A stretch of DNA of 59,399 nucleotides, the filler included, from Bipalium vagum (lineage: Eukaryota): NCBI GenBank assembly GCA_037834085.1. It is 3 parts of 3 records of this genome, joined end to end, with 100 filler letters (N's around TTAATTAATTAA, not from the genome) between each part and the next. Parts side by side here need not be neighbours in the genome. Positions count along the whole stretch, not along the records: positions 38,843 to 59,399 come from JBBMKC010250152.1; 2 more parts are not named here. One strand, given 5' to 3'. The translations under genes were made by a program, and so were the position numbers. The notes beneath the pieces are model-generated. The model made no database searches, was not told where the DNA came from, and was given only the letters and a program-made list of their open reading frames with translations. Within the stretch, counting starts at the first letter, position 1; each line of letters starts with the position of its first letter. Positions 42,461 through 57,989 of the stretch are shown here, one piece after another.

Positions 42461-43009
42461 GTAGCATGTTATTCTAAAATTATCAAATTTAAATAACTTT
42501 TAATAAAATAAATTTTAAATAGTATCAACTACTGATTTTAGTCAGTAGCAATTCATAATAATTTAATTTTTAGAAATTTATTTCATTTTCGGTAATAATT
42601 AAATATAGAAGGTAAGTCATGATTGACAGCTTAACTGGCCAATCAGAGACGCTAAAATGATCAGTAAAATAATATATAATCCAGCAAAAATTCATTATTT
42701 TTCGCCCAGAAAATTATCTGGTATGAGTTTGATAATTTTTTTTTGCTGACCAGGGTTTACCCTGGCACAGCTTTTTAATTAAAGATTGGTGATTTGCAAC
42801 TGCCTGAGCAGTTTGTTTGTTTTTGTTTGACTGCCGATTGTTGCAGTTTTTTTGTTTATTAGAAGGTTTTATTAACAACGATCTCACCCTCATTAAATAA
42901 ATTTTTAGAGTGTTTTTTTGTGTTTCTTTTGAAAGGGTGAGGTTCGAGCTCAATAGTTAAGCTAATAGCAACCTTAGTAAGGTCAGATAAGCTAAGGGGT
43001 AGCTTTGCG

Positions 43010-43290
43010 CCAACAATATCTTCGCCTCCAAAAGCGGTATCTTCATATTCTTATAAATTTGAGACCACATCACGAAAGATTTGCTGGAATGAGGTAACTG
43101 TTTCAGAACTGCACCTTCGAATATTGTGTCACTTTTTATTGAAATTGTTTTACGGCAATTGTCTTTTATTTCCGCATCTAAACCGCTTGTTATTCATCTC
43201 AATATTCAAAGGCTTGTTACATTTTGGGTATGCTTTACCCAGAGGCAATATGTTTTGATTTATCAGAAATTCTATTGACCTTTCTCCATT
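43010..43290 (-). mobile_element. Merlin transposase N-terminal fragment
   Basis: IEFLINQNIL..PKC...FRC...SIKSDTIFEG...FGGEDIV. Confidence 0.65.
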
Positions 43291-43299
43291 GACCCTCGT

Positions 43300-44130
43300 A
43301 CCTCTCCCTGTCTTTCTGTTATGCTTCAACTTTAACCAGGACTTTATCTCCAATCTTGAAATGCCTGTTACTTGGATACATTCTAGACATTGTCTTCTGA
43401 TTCCCTACCCACTTGTATCTCCGCATGTTTCTCCCGAAAACCATCAGCGTTGAGCTCGTTCCAATTATCTTATGTTAAGTAGCATTTAACATAAATTTTA
43501 GTTCCGACAGCATGATGCCCAACTTTCCTGTTTCGCTCCCTTCAATGAATGCGTTCAAACAATCCCTAATTGTTCGAAATTGTCTTTCGACCTTTCGACC
43601 TTTCGACCTCCATTTGTGTTATGGTGGTATGAACTTGAAAAGCATAACTTGATACCCATGGAAAGAGCCATTTGCAGTATTCTTTGTGACTCGAAAGATT
43701 TTTCGAAGTCAGTGAAACTTTCTTTAAAAGGTCCCCAGATGTCAATGTACATTTTTCTAAGGTTTCTAGAGCGGCACGTTTTATAGCTGATTCGTTTGTT
43801 TTTGTCATAATCACTGTTTTTTGATAAGATGAACATGATTTTGTCACATTGGCTACTATTTCCTCAAGTATACTATGTCGTATCCTTTTTTATGTATCTT
43901 AATGTCTTCTCGAAAGCGGCTAGCTTTAGGTGTTCATGTCTCTCCTTGACCCAATTCATTCTCTTCTCCCTTGGGATCCACACCTTTCCGGATGCTTTTG
44001 GGATCACACTATCCCGTGATTTATAGAAATTCTTGCTCCCTTTATCGATGCTAGATTGTGTTTCTCCTATCTCTTTGATGTCTTGTTGCCATTTGAATGC
44101 TCTGCAGCTGGTCACGGTTTTTAGCTGCCT
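43300..44130 (-). mobile_element. Ty3/Gypsy-type integrase remnant
   Basis: HEHL..CHHC-like region, YIDIWGP, GIKLCFSSSYHHNTNG..VER, ELKFMLNAT...VFGR. Confidence 0.8.
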
Positions 44131-44799
44131 TGTCTTAATTTTGCCTTCAAAATAATAGAAAAATGCTCAATTTTGTTGAGAGTAGTAAATGAGTCAAAAC
44201 TGGTGAACTTAACAGTATTAGAAGAAGTCACACCGGATTTAGTCGGCGGATAAAATCTCCAAATTGCTTCGACTTTTGATTCTTATTTACAAATGACTAC
44301 TCAAGAATATAACTAACCCTATGAGAAATTGGTATGAGGAAAAGTACACCTGCAGGGTTCGCTGGCTGACCTTTGGTACCTTATTCTTAGATTATCCTTA
44401 AAAGGCTTAAAAGATTTAGATTTTGGTTCAGGTGGTATCTGGATTGGCTCTGTATCAGTGATGTATGGTACAATGAGAGTTGATCTCTGTGATCACTATT
44501 TTACCCTCGTCCGCCACCTTGACCTCTCGTTTCTTCTCACCTTTTCCCTCTTATTTTTAGTTTTCGTGCTAGGCAAGATCTCCGTATTCTCTCTTTGCTC
44601 ATATCAGATTCGCAAGGACGCCTTAACGATTTGCCGAATTCTTGGTAGTTGCAATGGTCTTTTCTGGTATTGGCTACACTGCCTTTGATTTGTGCTTCGT
44701 TTTGGTCAGTCCCTGTTTCTTCGGTTCCTGATTCTTCTTCTTCTGCTAATTTAATTATTTAAATAAATAATTAAAAATATTCCCCAGGTTTGATTAGCT

Positions 44800-45250
44800 T
44801 CCTCATACGGACAATTCGTGATCTTATTGACGCGACACTCAAGCAAAGGAAGTAAACAGGTTGGACAGAGATTCTACAAGACGTTGAGTTTGTGATCAAC
44901 GCCCAAGTTTAAAATTCTACGTGGATAAGCCCGTAGAAAATTGATTTTGGCAGGAAAATCTTCAGGGAAAGGTGAATTTCAAGGATCGATTTGGAGATCA
45001 GAATGAGGAAAATAGAAACGAAACAAGATGCCCCCCCAATCTCAACGGCTAGAATCCAATTTTTTGTGGAAGACAATGTCTTGATAAAGCGGAGAACAGG
45101 AACAAGGAACAAGATCGATATATTGGACCATACAAAGTGATCAAGAAAAGTCAAGACAGAAGATATATTCATGGGATCCAGGAGATGTATAGATTTTAAA
45201 AAGTCTATGTACTTTGTTAGGAAGAAAATATGCCACAAAGCAGAACCCAA
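44800..45250 (+). mobile_element. Gypsy/Ginger-type integrase C-terminal remnant (copy 1)
   Basis: RTIRDLIDATLKQRK*TGWTEILQDVEFVINA...FGRK and GPYKVIKK (GPY/F motif). Confidence 0.75.
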
Positions 45251-45619
45251 AGAACAATGCGCTGACGAACCGATCCGTCCATGACGCAGATCAGAAATTT
45301 GAAAGGGAAACGGAACCGGATCAATTATTTTTAATTTTAATCTAAATTTATGAAGATAAATTTATTTAATAAATTTAAAACGGTTATGAATAAAATTTAT
45401 TTCAATCTCCATAGCAGCGCGACCCCTGGTCACAAATATTTTATATTGTGAAAGTAAATTTATAAACAATTTATTATAATAGAATTATTTCCGGTCGAAA
45501 GATTTCGGTCGCTCTCATGATGCACATGTAAACCTTTCGGGTCGAAGGGTTCTTTCAGATAACCAATATGTATCAATTAACATTAAAAATAGAATCGATA
45601 AATCTTCATAATCGATGAA

Positions 45620-45692
<73 letters not shown>

Positions 45693-46147
45693 TCGGAATG
45701 GTCAAAGGTTGAAATCGTTGAAGTTTTTTAATGAAAGATCGCAAAGTTAAATTATCCAAAGTATCAAAAAGGTTTAAAATCATTAACATCAATAAAAGGG
45801 TAAAAGAATTCACTGATTCTGTGTTGTGTTTGTTTGAATGATCGTCATTTGAATGGCAAATCTGGAAAATAACATAACAATGCCTTCATTCTATTAGTGG
45901 TCTTTGGCTGTCACTTTTTGTCTTCGGCGCTCCTATGGAAAAGAAAAGGATAAAAAATGACGTTGGACAGAAATCAATTGGAGATAAGAAATAACCTTTC
46001 TTCATCGTTTGCATCAAATATTTCCGAAGAATTCGTCGACTTCTCCAAAGGTTTGTGTGAGTCTTTCATTTCAATGTATACATGGATGACGTTACCATTC
46101 TCCTTTTCCAAGAAATTATTTGCAAGATCTGATTTATTATAATTTAT

Positions 46148-46178
<31 letters not shown>

Positions 46179-47298
46179 TTATTATTAACTCAGATAAAAC
46201 TCACTAACTTTTCTCCGTTTTTTCCAATTCTGCCCACGGGTTAGAGTCTTTCGAAGCTTGCATTGATTTCGGTAGTCTATCGTTGAAAGGGAGGTCTGTC
46301 GGTTCTCCTCCCTTTCCTTCTGCCAAGCCAGGATATTCCCCATATTCAAAAGCTGACAGAAAAACAAAATTTAAATATCGACCTAATTTTTCGTTCCAAA
46401 GAAACAAATTACCGCGTCCGTCTCCCTCAGGTATTCCTCTTTTTGCTTTTCGTATCGCCATCCTGTACGCGAGAGCACTGACCAATACGCAACCTTAATC
46501 GGTCAACCAATCAGATCAAAGAATAATACAAACAAAATCAACGATACCCAAAAACACAATCGGGATCAAAATCCAAACAGAATCGACGATACCCAATGAC
46601 CGAATATCCTTTGACCTCGGCATGGAAGACTCATTGTCATCGCGACACTCCTCCTCGCTGATCTCATTCAATCTTAGCTCCATCTTAACGACGGTCACGT
46701 TGTCCTTCACACCTCGGTTGTTGTACACCAAGTGGGCCTTGACGAATCCGTCGAACTGCTTCGTTGTGGGTCTGATTTGACCTCCACAAGTCGTCGACAG
46801 CTGAATCGAGAGAAACATCGTCATAAACGAATATCGATATAAAGATTCACATTTCTTTCCTGGTCCCACGAATTGATTTTGATGTCTATTTCGAAAAACG
46901 GACATCGTCGAGTCGATATCTTCTGTTCCATCAACGAAATCCGTTCGATGGACAACAGCAAACGAGAATTGTTAGTTACAGTGCTGAAACTCAAAAGGCA
47001 GTCCAAAGGTTCCGTCAACGGTGGCAGCAGGATGATCTTAAAAAGGCATTTGGAGTGTAGCTCAACTCTGTCTTTGCAATTGTTCTTTGTGATTTCTAAA
47101 AGTGAATTCAAAAGGACTGAAGACTCTAAACTTCCCCCAACCTACAGCCACCAGTGCCCCAAACAGAAGAGAAAATAAAATGTAACTCATTTTAATGATC
47201 ATTTTTAAGAACCGCCTTTGTACAAAATAATAAATTAAATTATTTAAGAACCGCTCTACGCGAATAATTTTAAATTGGATTATTTAAACAAAACCCGA
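44820..47298. repeat. ~2.5-kb duplicated segment, copy 1 (direct repeat with 55479-57909)
   Basis: Shared start GATCTTATTGACGCGACA and end GGATTATTTAAACAAAACCCGA; collinear throughout. Confidence 0.95.
45911..47190 (-). CDS. Unknown type I single-pass membrane protein, paralog A (7 exons, ~308 aa)
   Basis: Exons 47190-47142, 47095-46851, 46800-46548, 46493-46413, 46352-46209, 46128-45996, 45932-45911, all GT-AG and phase-compatible. Signal peptide MSYILFSLLFGALVAV, 6-Cys ectodomain, TM VWILIPIVFLGCVLVSALAY followed by RMAIRKAKR. Confidence 0.75.
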
Positions 47299-47443: not shown

Positions 47444-49056
47444 GAGTCAAATCTCGTTACTATGCCACTCCGCTATTATGCCACTTTTCTACGTTCCCGA
47501 CAAAATTTACTACAAAATAAATTTATTATGCCACCCCTAACCCTCGCTACTATGCCACCATTAAATAATGATGATGTTATGTAATTTTTTAATTTAAATT
47601 ATATTTTACTACTAAAAATGTGCATATCAGTCATTGCTTTGTCTAATTATGCATTTTTCAAAAACCATTCAAAAATAAACTCCGCAGTTAACTGATTAAT
47701 TCAATTATTTTTATTCATTTTTTTAAAATTTAATTCATTTTTTTCAATTTTTTTTAAATTCAGCCCATCATGTCAACTGAAAAGCGCAAACGAATTGAAT
47801 TTTCGTTGAAGCAAAAGAAGGAAATTATTGATGCTGCGAAGAAGGAGCCGAATACGTCCAAGCTAGCCAGAGAGATGAACAAGGAGTTGAAGTCAAGAGA
47901 ACTACAGTAAAAGACATTCTCAACAAGAAGGATTGTATTGAGTCTGCCGTAAATGCTGGAGTTCCATCGAAACGAGTAAAGCTGACACAGGGTCACAACC
48001 CAAATCTTGACAAAGGGGTATTCATGTGGTTGAAGCAGACAAGAGGAGCAAATCTGCCTGTCAGCGGAGATCTTATCAAGGAAAAGGCTGTGAAAATGGC
48101 CGAGTTGATGCACATCCAAATTTTTATGGCAAGTGACGGTTGACTAGATAACTTTAAGAAGAGCTACGGCATTGTGTTTAAGACAGTACAGGGCGAAGTT
48201 GGAGCAGTAAATTCACAATCTTTTCTTGAGTGGCAACAACAGGTTCTCCAGTCTTTACTCATAAAGTAAAGCGCAAACGACGTCTTCAACCTAGACGAGA
48301 CAAGATATCTCTGGCAGCTTCTTCCAAATAAGACCATCTCTTTCAGGGATTTTTAAGAAATTGAGAGGGAATTATAGAGATTCTCAAACGTAACTACAAA
48401 AAGCTTTTGCTGTGTCGTCGACTTGAAGCAATGGATGAAGGAAAGGAATTTAAGTTTACATTGCTTGATGCTCTATATGCCATTCGACGTGCTTGGGAGC
48501 AAGTCACCGAATTGGCAATTAGGAACTGTTTTGCAAAGGCCAAGTTCTGTAAAGCAGAAATCCAAACTGAGCCAGAGGATACTGAGCTGCTCGAGATTTG
48601 GGAGTCTCTGCCGGCAGAAAACGAAGAAATTGAGCTGTTGGATTTTCTTAATGCTGACGAGCGCCTGGCGACTGTTGGATCATTTACGTTAGAAGAGATT
48701 GCGGAGGAGGTGCTGTGCAGTGAGGAACGGGTGGAAGACAAAGATAATAAAGTAATAACTGTCGAGGAGGAAGTTATTCCTTTCGGGGAAGCCCAGCGCG
48801 CATGGATTATTGTTCGAAAGTTTATAAAATAGAACAGCGGTAAAACTGATGTTATGTTAGGTTGCGATAGGTTAAATAACGAGATAAATAGAATCCGCCT
48901 AAAGAAAATGCGTCAGCCGACGATTTTTGAAGTCTTTGGATTAGCTGATATTAACTTTAAAAAATAAAGTATTTTTTTACAAACCCTCGCAACTATGCCA
49001 CTCTATGCTACTTTTTTCTTGGTCCCGACGGGTGGCATAGTAACGAGATATTACTG
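47444..49056 (+). mobile_element. pogo/Tigger (CENP-B-type) DNA transposon, internally deleted
   Basis: TA-flanked TIRs (c/g)AGT..ATCTCGTTACTATGCCAC with subterminal copies; ORF from 47770 MSTEKRKRIEFSLKQKKEII...FMASDG*LDNFK...VFNLDET...AWEQVTELAIRNCF. Confidence 0.92.
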
Positions 49057-49394
49057 TATTATTAAAAATCAGGCGATTATATTTAATTGCATAAATATGT
49101 TGGGTTAGCCAAGGACACATTCCTGTAAACCCTTGTAAAAGTTTATCTTAGAGTCCGCAATATGGTCGAGAATAGTGATTATTATTACACATCTGTAACA
49201 AATTTAATTTTTCTTTTCCCTCATAATTTTTTAACTTTATTCAGTTACGCATGTTATAATAGGAAGGGTGACAAAGTTTAACAGAGATCGGTCGAACCGT
49301 TTTAGACTTACATCGCTTTTAACAAAATATAAAAATGTCACAAAACTAGTAATACTTTATTACGAAACAGTATATTAACCAAAGAAAGAGGTGT

Positions 49395-50131: not shown

Positions 50132-51295
50132 GGTGGTCACATTCAATCAGCTATAACAAATAATAAATTTTTAAGCAAATTTTCCACAGGAAAATACCTA
50201 GGTGAATTACATTTAAAATCTTTGACTCCTTTATATAAAACAAATCCAGTTTCAAATTTTTGTGGATCTGGAACTCATGTTGATTAAGTCAAGTTCAAAA
50301 TCAAACTCCAAAAGAAAAATTTGAAAGAGCAATAGTAAAATTAATTATGAAGAGCCAGGTCGCTTTAGGATTAGGATTAGGAAGATCTTCAAAGTTGCTC
50401 GCAAATGAAACATTATTTAAAAACTCAAAACTTTTAAATCCAGAAAAATCAAAAATACTTGCAAATGAGCTGCATAAAGAATTTAGAAAACAAAAACTTT
50501 TTAAAAGGTAAAGTTAATAACAAAGATGATATTTGGTCTGCAGATTTAACATTTGTCCCAGGAGAAAGAGATTATAAAATAATTCTAACATTTATTGATT
50601 TATATACTCATTTTGCTGTTCCTTTAAAAACTTAAACAGGTCAAAAAATGATAGATACATTTGATAAAATATTTGAAGATTCTAATAGAGTTCCAGAAAA
50701 ATTTTGGGTTAATAAAGGTTCTGAATTTTACAATAAAACTTTTGAAGGTTTTTGTGATGATAGTGAAGTAGAATTCTATTCAACAGAGAATGAAGGAAAA
50801 GAAGTTGCCATTGAAAGATTTAATAAAACTCTAAAAAATTTAATGTTTCAAAAATTTACGGAACAGGAAACAGAAAATGGTTTCATATTTTACCAAATTT
50901 AATTAATTTCTATAACATTAATATTCATAGTTCATTCGGTATTTCGCCAAAAGAAGCAAGTAAAGATCCAGCACAGCTGTCAAGGTCTTCGACTAGTCCA
51001 ACGAAGTTGGCTTAGCCTACGGCTAGTCCAAAAAAGTTAAAGATTCAAAAAGATGACAACGAAAATCTTAATCCTGTAATTGCTAAACCAAAATACCATA
51101 TTGGAGATCATGTGAGAATTTTTAAATATATAAGAATAAATTCGAAAAAGGATATACAGCTAGATGAACAACTGATTTTTTTATTATAAATGAAATTTAT
51201 TTCACAAATCCAATTGTTTACGGTATTATTGATTTAAATGTGGGAAAATATTGGCTAGATGTTACGATTTTGAGCTTCACAGAAGCACTCTATGA
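50132..51295 (+). pseudogene. Polinton PLA2X (parvovirus-like PLA2) fused to rve integrase
   Basis: GELHL...NFCGSGTH and EK..AIVKLIMKSQVALGLG read in frame into LANELHKEFRK; then IWSADL, FWVNKGSEFYN, IERFNKTLK, KYHIGDHVRI, FEKGYT. Confidence 0.9.
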
Positions 51296-51796
51296 GATGT
51301 AATCGGAGACAAACCTCTACTTTAAAATTTAAATATTTTATTTTTTAAAAATTATTAATTACATCATCATGGTAGACGTTCATTATCAAATTTTATTTCT
51401 CAATGTCTTTCATTTCCTGGCCAGCCCGTTTGGCAGTGTGCATGGTACCACGGCTGCGTTGTAGTTGTCAGATATTCGAATCTTCACTTGTCTTCTATTT
51501 CCTTCTCTTTCTTAAAAGACTATTTAAGCCCGCCGGTTACATCAGGGAGAGGCAATTTCGCATTTTGGTTTCCAGTTCGGTCTTGAATAAAGGAAAGTGA
51601 AAAGGGAAGAGAAGTTAAAAAAAAGTTTTTTAATAAAAAAAAAGAAATGATAGCACTGAAAAGGATGGTGGTTGGAACTGCTTGATGGAGAAAAGGAGAT
51701 GTAAGAGTTGATAAAGACAGACCACCATCCAAGCCATCAAAGAGTTTTGTCATTTTTATAAATATTAATGAAAAAAAGTAAATTTATTTTTAAAAA

Positions 51797-52140
51797 ATGA
51801 ATAAGAAAATCACAAATGAAAAATTCAAAAATATTATCGAAATAGGCAAACCTAAATATATAACATTTAATGGAGAAAAATACTACGTCTCCAAGTGGAA
51901 AATCTCAGCGAAGCTGGCAAGACCGAGGTCGAATTAAAATCTAAAGAGGAACAAAAATCTGGAGCTGGACTTTTCTTCAATCCTTGTTTTGGTAAAATAT
52001 TAAGAGATTCAATTTTAAATAGTTCTGAGGGAAAATGTTTAAAGAGATTAAAAGAAATAAAAGCAAAAGCTTTGTAAAAATAAATTAAAATAACTAAACA
52101 AGGACCTGGCCTATTTTTTGATCCTTACAAGAAAAGTAAA
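51797..52140 (+). pseudogene. Polinton small basic protein with GxGLF repeats (putative core protein)
   Basis: A-rich ATG context; SGAGLFFNP and QGPGLFFDPYKK motifs. Confidence 0.5.
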
Positions 52141-52275
52141 TAAACACACATAAATGCTAGTGCCGAAGAGTCTTTTATTCAATTCAAAATTTTCCAACAA
52201 TATTTTTTTCCCATTAAAATTTTTTCTCATATAAAAATTTCTAACAATTTTTTTTCCAATTTTATTTTTAAAAAA

Positions 52276-52727
52276 ATGGCAGAAAGAATAGTGGAATTCT
52301 TTTGTAAATATGGTATAAATACAACAATAACATTTGATTTAATTAATATTGCAACAGATTTAGATATGCCTCTATAAGTTTTGATGAAAGATGACGAAAT
52401 TACATTAAAACATATTACAATGATATTCCACGTAATTCTGATATTCCTTTAATAATTGAATATGAAAATTTGAAAGAAGAAGGAATCCATTGGATTGGAT
52501 ATTAAAATTGTGCTTATTTTAACTCTTATGGTTTACCTCCTTCTTCAAGTATGTTACTTGAAAGTACAGAAGTATATGAACGAACTATAATATTCAATAA
52601 ATTAAATTTTCAAAGTGAAATGGATTTGTTGTATAGTGGACAATTAACTTTATATGTTATACAAGATGGGAAATTTATAGAAATTTTAGAAGAGTTACAA
52701 AATGTTATCTTAGAAAAATTAAAATAA
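52276..52727 (+). pseudogene. adenain-like cysteine protease, copy 1
   Basis: GIHWIGY*NCAYFNSYGLPP...FQSEMDLLYSG (Asp site reads Asn, Cys site reads Ser). Confidence 0.75.
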
Positions 52728-52775
52728 TTTAAAATTGAAAGAATTAAAATTTTAAAAATTAAATTTTATAAAAAA

Positions 52776-53200
52776 ATGAGTCGATTTAAGATTGTAAAAA
52801 CAAATTCATTGCTATAGTTTTTATGTAAACATGGAATTAACACAACATCAAATTTAGATTTAATTGATATTACTGAAGACTTAAAATTACGAGACGGAGT
52901 CTCTCATATCAAAGGTATGCCATTAAAATAATATGGCATGAACTATCTGAAAAAAAGATTTAAATCTGAAGTTTCATTAATTATTAAATATCAAAATACA
53001 AATCAAAAAGAAATTCATTAGGTTGGGTATTACGCTGGATACTATTTTGATTCTTATAGTTTACCACCATTTGAAGATTTAGAAAAACATGTTAAGGAGT
53101 ACAACAGATTTGATTTTCAATCTGAAACAGATTTAGAGTATTGTGAACGAATATTTTTATATGTTTTATATCAACTTTTTCAAGGAAAAAATTGAGGAAA
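52776..53200 (+). pseudogene. adenain-like cysteine protease, copy 2
   Basis: EIH*VGYYAGYYFDSYSLPP...YNRFDFQSETDLEYC (His, Asp, Gln and Cys positions retained). Confidence 0.8.
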
Positions 53201-54570: not shown

Positions 54571-56352
54571 TGGATATAGCCATTTTTAAACGAAACGGAA
54601 TTGAAAATATTTTGACCGACATCGTTTAAACTGCATTTTCCGTTGCTGTGTTATGCTTGGGTCTAATCCCAGCAGAAACAATTTCCTTGCATTGAGTAAA
54701 TATTCTTCAAGTATTTATATAACCTTTGTACCTCCTGCTAGAGTTTGATCAATACATAACATCCTTTTAGATATTTCCACATTATTCGTTACTTCTACTA
54801 AATGGTTTTAAATATTCTTCAACATCTTTTTATCTTTGATTTTTTTATTATTGTTAAATAGGGTTATAATAAATAATAATTAATATTATTAACAGAATTA
54901 ATTAAACTTTCAACATTAGAAATTGACATTATACATTATAATTCAAAATTAGATAAATTATATATTCTAATCACCATACAAGTTTGCGTATTTTACTTAA
55001 AATTATTTTATTTATATTTATTGTTTTCTTAGTCTCAATTATGTTTATTATTTTTCTGAAATCTTTATTTCCTCTCCCTTTCCACAGACGCCATATTTTA
55101 AATTTTCAATCATTTCATCTTCCAATTTTGTTTCAAAATATAAAAATTAATAATCGATTTTGCAATATCAATATTTCCAATAAACCGTTTTGAAATAAAT
55201 TTTAATGCTTCGTTTTTTCTAAATCCAGATCATAATGGATTATTTTTTATAAGATTTATAACACGTTTTTCTCCCAAAGTTATTTGATCGTTATTGACAA
55301 TTGGAATTAATTTCCCTCACTCATTTTTAAAGAGAAAAATAAATGTTTTTCTCAACATTATCTCGATCAAACCAATCTTCATTTTTTTTCAATTACATTT
55401 CTACTTCTGATTTCTGAGAAAATTCTGACCTTTGTTGATTTTTAGGATTTTGGAATCTTATTTTTTTTATATTTTTAGGATCTTATTGACGCGACAATCA
55501 AGCAAAGGAAGTAAACAGGTTGGACAGAGATTCTACAAGACGTTGAGTTTGTGATCAGCGCCCAGGTTCAAAAGTCTACGAGGATAAAGTCGTAGGAAAT
55601 TTTTTTTGGCAGGAAAATCTTCAGGGAAAGGTGAATTTCAAGGATCGATTTGGATATCAGAATGAGGAAAATAGAAACGAAACAAGATGCCCCCCAATCT
55701 CAACGGTTAGAATCCAATTTGTTGTGGAAGACAATGTCTTGATAAAGCGGAGAACAGAAACAAGGAACAAGATCGATATATTGGACCATACAAAGTGATC
55801 AAGAAAAGTCATGACAGAAGATATATTCATGGGATCCAGGAGATGTATAGAATAAAAAAAAGTCTATGTACTTTGTTAGGAAGAAAATATGCCACAAAGC
55901 AGAACCCAAAGAACAATGAGATCGGTCCATAAAACTTTCGTGAGCTGACGAACCGATCCGTCCATGACGCAGATCAGAAATGTGAAAGGGAAACGGAACC
56001 GGATCAATTATTTTTAATTTTAATCTAAATTTATGAAGATAAATTTATTTAATAAATTTAAAACGGTTATGAATAAAATCTATTTCAATCTCCATAGCAG
56101 CGCGACCCCTGGTCACAAATATTTTAAATTCTGAAAGTAAATTTATAAACAATTAATTATAATAGAATTATTTCCGGTCGAAAGATTTCGGTCGCTCTCA
56201 CGATGCACATGGAAGCCTTGTAGGTCGAAGGGTTCTTCCAGATAACCAATTTATATCAATTACCATTAAAAATAGAATCCATAAATCTTCACAATCGATG
56301 AAAATAATAATAAATAATAATAATAATTATTAATTAATTAATAATAATAATT

Positions 56353-56372
56353 GTAGCTCAGCGGTCAGAGCA
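56353..56372 (+). other. tRNA D-arm/A-box-like fragment (possible SINE head relic)
   Basis: GTAGCTCAGCGGTCAGAGCA with GCTC/GAGC stem; no B-box or acceptor stem. Confidence 0.4.
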
Positions 56373-56609
56373 GTCCATTTTCATTGTATTCTGCTTTTAT
56401 CCTTTTCTCTTTCTCTTTTTATGTTTGGGTTGTTTTTTGAAAATAAAAACTGAAAGAAATCGTTGAAGTTGTTTTGATGAAAGGTCACGAAGTATCAAAA
56501 AGATTTAAAATCAAAAATATTAATAAAAAATAAAGGATCCCTTGATTCTGTGTTATGTATGGTTGAATGATGGTGACATGTAAATCGGGAAAATAACGTA
56601 ACAATGTCT

Positions 56610-56863
56610 TCATATTAGTGGTCTTTGGCTGTCAGGTATGGTCAGTGGCGGTCCTTTGGAAAAGAAAAGGATAAAAATGCCATTCAACAAAAATCAATTG
56701 GAGATCGGAACTAACTCTTTTTTTCTTCGTTTTCATCATATACTTCTGAAGATTTCGACGACTTCTCCAAACTTTTGTGTGAGTCTTTCATTTCACTGTG
56801 GACAGGGATAACGTTACCATTCTCTTTTTCCAAGACATTCTTTGCAAGATCTGATTAATTATA

Positions 56864-56915
<52 letters not shown>

Positions 56916-57842
56916 ATAAATTGCTAACCTTTCTCCAATTCCGTCCACAAGACGGTTAAAGTTTGGAGTGATTTTTGTAATTCATCGTTGGAATATTGTC
57001 CTTCTTCTTCCTCGGCACGACTGATCCCTCTTGTTTCTGTTGCATTTTTATTCCTCCTCATTTTCATTACACATTCCCTCTTCACGTACCCGACAGCACA
57101 ACCCAATACGAAACCTTTATCGGTGGACCAATCAGATCAAAGAATAAAACCACACGATATCGACGATACCCAATATGAAAATGGGGACCCAAATCCAAAC
57201 AGAATTGACGATATCCAATGACCGAACATCCTTTGGCATAATCCGAACAGTTGATCTCTGCAGTGAAGACTCGTCATCATCGCGACACTCCTCCTCGCTG
57301 ATCTCGTTCAGTCTCAGCTCCATCCTGACGACAGTGTCCTTGTCCTTCAGACCACGGTTGTTGTAGACCAAGTGAGCCTTGACGAATCCGTCGAAGTGCT
57401 TCATTGAGGGTTTGAGATAACCACCACAAATCATTGATAGCTGAATCGATGGAGACATCGTCATAAACAATCATCGTTATTATCGAGACAAAGTAGATTA
57501 ACTTTTCTGTGTCGGTCCAACAAATTGGTTTTGATGTTTATTTCGAATAACGGACATCGTCGAGTCCATATATCCTGTTTCATCAATGTAATCTGTTCGC
57601 TGGTTAACAGCAAGCGAGAATTTTCAGTTACAGTGCTGAAATTCAAAAAGCAATCCAAAGGTTCCGTCAACGGAGGCAACAGGATGATCTTAAAAAGACA
57701 TTTGGAGTGGAGCTTGACTTGGTCTTTGCAATTGTTTTTTGTGATCTCTAAATGTAACTTTAAAAAGACTAAAAACTTTAAACGTCCCTCTACCTAAAGC
57801 CACCAGTGCCCCGAGCAGAAGAGAAATGAGAAAATAATTCAT
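56610..57842 (-). CDS. Unknown type I single-pass membrane protein, paralog B (6 exons, ~309 aa)
   Basis: Exons 57842-57794, 57747-57503, 57440-57170, 57114-56929, 56850-56716, 56653-56610. Signal peptide MNYFLISLLLGALVAL; TM VWIWVPIFILGFVLGCAVGYV followed by KR; intron positions shared with paralog A. Confidence 0.75.
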
Positions 57843-57989
57843 TTTAAAGAGCATTTAAAAACCGCTCTTCGTAAACAATGTTAAATTGGATTATTTAAAC
57901 AAAACCCGAGGGCCATTAAAAATAAATGGCGGATTAAAAATAGAAATTAATCTATTAAAATATAGATTAAATATATATATAATTGATTT

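Follow-up and report, generated by a model that had tools for sequence, protein, structure and literature searches.

A predicted six-cysteine membrane protein gene of Bipalium vagum is one of a large family and differs from its neighbouring paralogue chiefly in the segment just inside the membrane

The gene at positions 56610 to 57842 of the stretch analysed here (59,399 nucleotides from Bipalium vagum, three parts joined with filler, hereafter the window) and its nearby paralogue, which we call B and A, respectively, belong to a large family and do not form a mere pair. The real remodelling concerns the segment just inside the membrane, which is replaced between copies, and constraint is clear only in exon 3. 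The predicted product of B is a type I single-pass membrane protein whose outer domain has six cysteines, and the gene likely works, or did so until recently. We lean, without strong conviction, towards seeing in B one member of a large family restricted to its lineage, whose products would serve as recognition receptors at the cell surface and which would be renewed through gene duplication, loss and recombination.

Gene B, its paralogue A and their surroundings

The models of A and B were built on GT-AG boundaries on the minus strand, with all splicing predicted. B has six predicted exons of 49, 245, 271, 186, 135 and 44 nt, separated by five introns that are all of the GT-AG type, and encodes 309 amino acids in an unbroken reading frame without an internal stop, in agreement with a previous sequence-only reading of this DNA, which had called the copy intact. 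The features relevant to the analysis are as follows:

57881..57909, minus strand: 29-nt block upstream of B, repeated without change in A (47270-47298); a candidate promoter element with CCAAT
57794..57842, minus strand: B exon 1 (49 nt); encodes the hydrophobic N-terminus, a putative signal peptide
57503..57747, minus strand: B exon 2 (245 nt); membrane-distal ectodomain with Cys 23, 33, 49 and 81
57170..57440, minus strand: B exon 3 (271 nt); remaining ectodomain (Cys 103, 150), stalk and first half of the transmembrane helix
56929..57114, minus strand: B exon 4 (186 nt); completes the transmembrane helix and begins the tail
56990..57085, minus strand: B hypervariable juxtamembrane segment, residues 199-230, including Tyr229; unalignable to that of A
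56716..56850, minus strand: B exon 5 (135 nt, phase 1-1); includes the codons of His268 (56798-56800) and Tyr288 (56738-56740)
56654..56715, minus strand: B last intron (62 nt, phase 1); retention would give an in-frame stop codon
56610..56653, minus strand: B exon 6 (44 nt); last residues of the protein, with terminal DSQRPLI
55479..56351, plus strand: retrotransposon-like fragment on the downstream side of B, sharing 95% identity with one downstream of A (44820-45667)
45911..47190, minus strand: paralogue A, seven predicted exons, 308 amino acids; carries YPGL, YIEM and a 133-nt exon 5

Each predicted protein has a hydrophobic N-terminus and a single strong hydrophobic window (residues 179-197 in B and 173-191 in A), followed by a predicted tail of 111-116 residues, and the start context AAAATG is common to the two genes. 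The structural details of the previous reading were all borne out by direct comparison: introns 1-3 coincide in position and phase (1, 0, 1; lengths in B and A 46/46, 62/50 and 55/54 nt), exons 1 and 2 measure 49 and 245 nt in both genes, all six ectodomain cysteines are kept at identical positions (23, 33, 49, 81, 103 and 150), and exactly 20 of the 82 exon-2 residues differ. Over the ectodomain 104 of 136 residues are identical, and identity between A and B amounts to 83-86% in exons and 76-86% in introns. Coding indels, said before to preserve the frame except at the terminal exon, are indeed absent from exons 1 and 2 and comprise 18 nt in exon 3 (the stalk of B has six extra residues), a net 39 nt in exon 4 and 2 nt in exon 5, the last of which puts the last intron in phase 1 in B and in phase 2 in A. 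Neither the 60-nt intron of A nor its YGEYPGL segment occurs in B, with the qualification that a whole segment of 32-40 amino acids is unalignable and the difference is not a clean deletion, and B has HSEM at the position of A's YIEM. For its part, B has two tail tyrosines (229 and 288) and two extra cysteines (194 and 203) that A does not share. The 60-nt intron of A lies inside the juxtamembrane segment and, being a multiple of three and stop-free, could be retained. The idea that A and B are two alleles was rejected, since the window contains both, at a distance of 9 kb.

The window is AT-rich (GC 0.19-0.36), includes five N gaps and abounds in transposon fragments, among which A and B sit. 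It contains exons of an EGFR-family gene at ~4065-8550 on the minus strand (Pfam GF_recep_IV, E=1.6e-11; best PDB match ErbB4) and is thus animal DNA. These exons encode an extended cysteine-rich region, and a word-based protein search with two of the EGFR-like exons retrieved no word-sharing relative, suggesting a poorly sampled lineage. GC content at third codon positions is 0.58-0.61 in the ectodomains of B and A (57170-57747 and 46548-47095) and 0.23-0.32 in four EGFR-like exons of the window; GC-biased conversion among copies, strong codon selection and foreign origin are possible causes of the high ectodomain values.

Self-comparison of the window revealed one duplicated unit, ~44820-47298 versus 55479-57909, in which the A/B duplicate aligns at ~80% over 815 and 510 nt, beyond chance. 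The retrotransposon-like fragment on the B side gave in Pfam a weak match to SH3_Tf2-1 (E=0.01), below the cut-off. Other mobile elements nearby include a broken transposon of the pogo/Tigger type immediately upstream of A (47450-49060; HTH_Tnp_Tc5 and DDE_1 above the cut-off), minus-strand fragments at ~42900-44700 that by eye look like the integrase region of a retrotransposon (nothing in Pfam at E <0.09), and a decayed plus-strand element at ~50400-53200 in which fragments of an integrase (Pfam rve, E=0.005 and 0.19) occur with two short repeats of a protease-like motif, and which may resemble a Maverick/Polinton. The flank shared by the two copies is 95-99% identical in most intervals compared, whereas the gene is 68-88% identical, with the step located near an ATT repeat (microsatellite) at ~56300. 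Flank identity of 95% differs strongly from the intron identity of 76-86% (p=7e-12), and since neutral introns would not be four times more diverged than the flank after a single duplication, the likely cause of the step is exchange, either among members of the family or among copies of the repeat.

A family of copies with different tails

The family was surveyed in contigs of one public run, X1, which holds 0.47 of the sampled words and is possibly the source of the window; as its contigs cover introns, the run behaves as DNA. Exons 1-4 (976 nt) matched 142 related records, seven of them at 99% identity or more, 11 at 95-99%, 49 at 90-95% and 75 below 90%, a count that does not equal copy number, as contigs overlap and some variants may be alleles. 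Position 57698 has a letter other than that of B in 21 contigs. Depth is 15-20 in the eight of 148 pieces listed, against a summed depth of up to 794 in exon 2, figures that likewise give no copy number; a cautious reading of the contigs would put the family at ten to several tens of related copies, with dozens being likely. Two parts of B (56560-56853 and 56925-57306) each match one X1 contig with 0 differences, as may be expected if X1 is the window's source, and no piece identical to B exon 2 occurs among the eight of 148 pieces listed.

Residues 199-230 of B and 193-232 of A align no better than shuffled sequences (p 0.31 for protein, 0.84-0.85 for DNA), and the score of the tail block next to this segment is reached by none of 500 shuffles. 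In run X1 the interval 56925-57056 is covered at 80% likeness solely by B's own contig, and the alignment of three contigs breaks off at 57102, from where they continue, as translated by eye, into another hydrophobic helix end followed by Gly-Lys. The segment of A, that of B and the divergence at 57102 therefore imply at least three tail types that share the ectodomain.

The end of the tail matched 16 X1 records. Five overlapping contigs (depths summing to 74.0) cover the His268 codon (56798-56800), and the tyrosine letter is found in one of the five, a contig that represents A itself (its 14 differences match the number counted between A and B); YIEM is thus peculiar to A. At residue 288 B has Tyr, and the Phe of A recurs in three contigs with about half the depth. 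Three contigs that are neither A nor B span exon 5, two without gaps and one 6 nt shorter, so that 3/3 keep the phase 1 of B, and none of the nine indel rows from the X1 tail-end contigs matches the 2-nt loss in exon 5 of A, a loss read from the window alone because A's own contig ends short of the exon 5 donor. An assembly slip in the A-run of B was rejected as the cause of the phase difference, given that one contig of X1, possibly the window's own source, is identical to B and that its phase recurs in three more. No variant falls at 56599-56635 among the 40 of 78 variant rows listed, and a -1/+1 pair that compensates itself is seen in one contig within B's last exon. The motif DSQRPLI is also present in the DNA of A, in a frame unused by A's predicted splice: read in B's frame, the last exon of A ends with DSQRPLI and differs by two silent third-position changes and a 3-nt indel before the stop.

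With the motif shared, no variant listed and the phase kept, the C-terminus of B is likely that of the family, and DSQRPLI is probably family-wide. A likely lost this C-terminus or uses a weaker downstream acceptor. Exon 5 of A is 2 nt short of the family norm (45911-45996), with loss of the conserved C-terminal motif predicted, and three AG sites located 19, 25 and 31 nt downstream would restore the frame and with it the C-terminus of the family; either a real change or an assembly error is possible. Judged from these contigs, the distal tail is family-wide, with B near the family norm at the tail end and A the deviant, the polarity of changes being taken from the family majority and not from a rooted tree. 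The earlier description of B's tail as remodelled hence holds in that the tails differ, but when the family is taken as reference most of the change lies in A, both in the phase of the last intron and in YIEM.

Selection and the fold of the ectodomain

Counting (NG86, A-B) gave an ectodomain omega of 0.38 (interval 0.21-0.67), and a codon model of the A-B pair with transition and base-frequency terms gave 0.45 for residues 17-152 (p=0.010). By the same model omega is 0.20 in exon 3 (residues 99-152; p=0.001), 0.77 in exon 2, which is no difference from 1 (p=0.52), 0.68 in the stalk and helix, and 0.99 in the homologous tail, which does not differ from neutral. At replacement sites the ectodomain has diverged less than the introns have (37/319 versus 49/249, p=0.009). 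Coding changes private to B, at positions where A agrees with the family, number 23 (14 replacement and nine silent, p=0.053) among the 40 of 286 variant rows listed; in the same rows the ectodomain, with a signal-peptide change excluded, has 13 replacement and nine silent changes (p=0.034). Seven of the nine silent changes run from G/C to A/T, which may inflate the silent counts. In simulations with 45-90 neutral substitutions per lineage, the chance that both frames stay open was 0.002-0.03, and that the frame of B alone stays open 0.04-0.17.

Pairwise A-B omega is nowhere significantly above 1, so the values for exon 2 and the tail are evidence for weak constraint only and none for positive selection. 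The proposal that both copies are under selection is borne out for part of the ectodomain, by the values for exon 3 and for residues 17-152 and by the open frames, but not for exon 2 or the tail; dN/dS per domain, the check suggested for it and run here on the A-B pair, falls below 1 in exon 3, is near 1 in the tail and does not differ from 1 in exon 2.

Compared by eye with the consensus, the ectodomain resembles a CUB domain; the typical CUB tyrosine/aspartate and Gly-Phe motifs are not evident in A or B. Four of the six cysteines (23, 49, 81 and 103) are spaced by 26, 32 and 22 in both proteins, with Gly after the last. For the last two intervals the spacing in PCPE-1 CUB1 is 27 and 22, so that the Cys81-Cys103 distance of 22 followed by Gly is the same in the two, as counted by eye. 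CUB domains are described as having 100-110 residues and four cysteines (PMC9083331). Pfam PF00431 did not match single-exon pieces of A and B or the protein P0003 (see below) at E up to 1-10, and PDB sequence searches gave nothing better than E above 0.5. The best scores in the ESM Atlas, 0.75 and 0.84, belong to unnamed proteins, and AlphaFold models of single exons were of low confidence, at pLDDT 38 for exon 2 and 50, with a two-strand hairpin, for exon 3. Against a CUB profile derived from two cysteine-free repeats of one bacterial protein (from one of 401 Bacillota genomes), a comparison of low power, the ectodomain scored below 48 of 60 shuffles. The source of this profile, a Bacillota protein encoded by 543 codons (L006:466-2094, minus strand) whose two CUB-like repeats contain no cysteine, is itself the only CUB match in the 401 genomes. 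All in all, the chances that the outer domain is a divergent CUB-type beta-sandwich seem to us evenly balanced.

The only relative outside the window and run X1, among 1.84 billion representatives searched, is P0003, an unnamed fragment of 97 amino acids that is distantly homologous to exon 2, is 36-40% identical and keeps Cys 23, 49 and 81. It was the one match of three that was kept; P0001 and P0002 were rejected as repeat proteins matching short stretches, and the metagenome and bacterial-contig loci L001-L005 as chance matches of 11-33 residues around one short motif. A word-based protein search with exon 2 (lengths 44-142) returned nothing, no relative turned up in the viral contigs and phages searched, and a literature search made without a species or family name found no published description of the family.

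Interpretation and comparison with known systems

If the family indeed consists of cell-surface recognition receptors, a role that is likely by analogy, and if B is expressed, the parts of the protein would have different duties. Exon 3, the membrane-near half of the ectodomain, is held by purifying selection and would be a structural or binding scaffold. Exon 2, the membrane-far half, varies almost freely and would set the ligand of each copy, and the juxtamembrane segment changes wholly between copies with the distal tail kept. The differing tyrosine content of A and B may alter signalling; individual tail positions gain or lose tyrosine (His or Tyr at 268, Tyr or Phe at 288), so that any difference in signalling would form a gradation over many members instead of an activating/inhibitory split. 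A bolder possibility, which we deem rather improbable, is a recognition system not described before, built on a divergent CUB-like domain instead of Ig or lectin domains, in which dozens of receptors with specificity in the distal ectodomain and a recombining juxtamembrane signalling cassette would provide a mix-and-match repertoire for self/non-self or parasite recognition.

The previous reading had seen in A and B a receptor pair that differs in signalling. On this view they would bind the same class of ligand, with A signalling via YxxL and YxxM and B giving the opposite signal or none. The two genes are indeed adjacent and combine similar ectodomains with different tails, and A has two Yxx-hydrophobic motifs (YPGL and YIEM, with the core YxxL/M), whereas the tail of B has none and a single YxN. 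However, by the account in PMC2413239 ITIMs mark the inhibitory members of receptor pairs, and the activating members act through ITAM adaptors, which they often recruit via a charged helix. Neither tail has any match to ITIM, ITSM or ITAM, neither helix has a charged residue, and hemITAM is absent from both, the YPGL of A being without the three acidic residues of the definition in PMC12582321. A and B thus do not qualify as paired receptors. Their tyrosine motifs are, moreover, as frequent as in shuffled tails (p 0.06-0.11), YIEM occurs in one of five contigs, and the family includes many members besides these two and no fewer than three types of tail, so we consider the proposal very unlikely. 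Hardly more probable is that B has recently lost constraint and is becoming a pseudogene with its frame still open: its identity to A is as high in introns as in exons, exon 2 and the tail are near neutral, its private silent changes mostly run from G/C to A/T, and an open frame survived in 4-17% of the simulations, but this is hard to square with the omega of exon 3, with the depletion of replacements among B-private changes, with the preservation of the six cysteines, the five GT-AG introns, the start context and the 29-nt upstream block, and with B's keeping of the majority terminal phase.

A somewhat better, yet still low, probability goes to the family being CUB-type adhesion or channel-accessory membrane proteins, with a tail serving anchoring or trafficking that simply drifts and a diversity created by transposon-driven duplication. 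This would suit omega values that exceed 1 neither in the tail nor in exon 2, tails without immune tyrosine motifs, the cysteine spacing shared with PCPE-1 CUB1 and the position of the genes among transposon fragments. Conserved accessory subunits, however, usually have recognisable orthologues, and the sole outside relative here is the short fragment P0003; one tail segment is replaced wholesale between conserved flanks, which is not plain drift, and CUB membership is unproven.

The recognition-receptor reading that we prefer can be compared with several known systems. Like the clusters of lineage-restricted single-pass membrane genes GRC/PTC1 and PTC2 of Biomphalaria glabrata, which are described as highly divergent and devoid of known domains, the A/B family is multi-copy, divergent, single-pass and without distant homologues. 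The PTC clusters are proposed to recognise parasites, and PTC2 is genetically associated with resistance (PMC7494358). Unlike the PTC2 paralogues, which by that account are less than 50% alike and vary mostly between haplotypes, the A/B family is ~80-90% alike in DNA and shares one exon plan; the likeness is one of pattern, no homology is claimed, and PTC2 has its resistance association, whereas the A/B family is known from sequence alone. The Fester family of Botryllus, with more than 35 genes diversified by intergenic recombination (PMC12582321), is likewise a large family of invertebrate surface receptors with a fold not obvious from sequence and with variable tyrosine motifs in the tail. 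It and its co-receptors are, however, described there as members of the Ig superfamily, some with a canonical ITIM or hemITAM, motifs that A and B do not carry, and here, too, only the pattern is compared and not descent.

Vertebrate paired receptors (FcR, KIR, LILR and Xenopus XFL) also combine similar ectodomains with different tails and birth-and-death evolution, but the ITIM tails and the charged helix recruiting ITAM adaptors that characterize them in PMC2413239 are absent from A and B. With CUB-domain membrane proteins (PF00431) the two share an ectodomain of ~110-130 residues in which four of the six cysteines approach the CUB spacing, and they differ from them in having two extra cysteines and no Pfam or PDB match, the Pfam scans being of single exons. 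The A/B family, with no named relative in the searches made, follows a common genomic pattern. Invertebrate recognition systems are described as arising lineage by lineage without shared genes (PMC12582321), and unnamed expanded receptor families with exchangeable tails are therefore worth listing.
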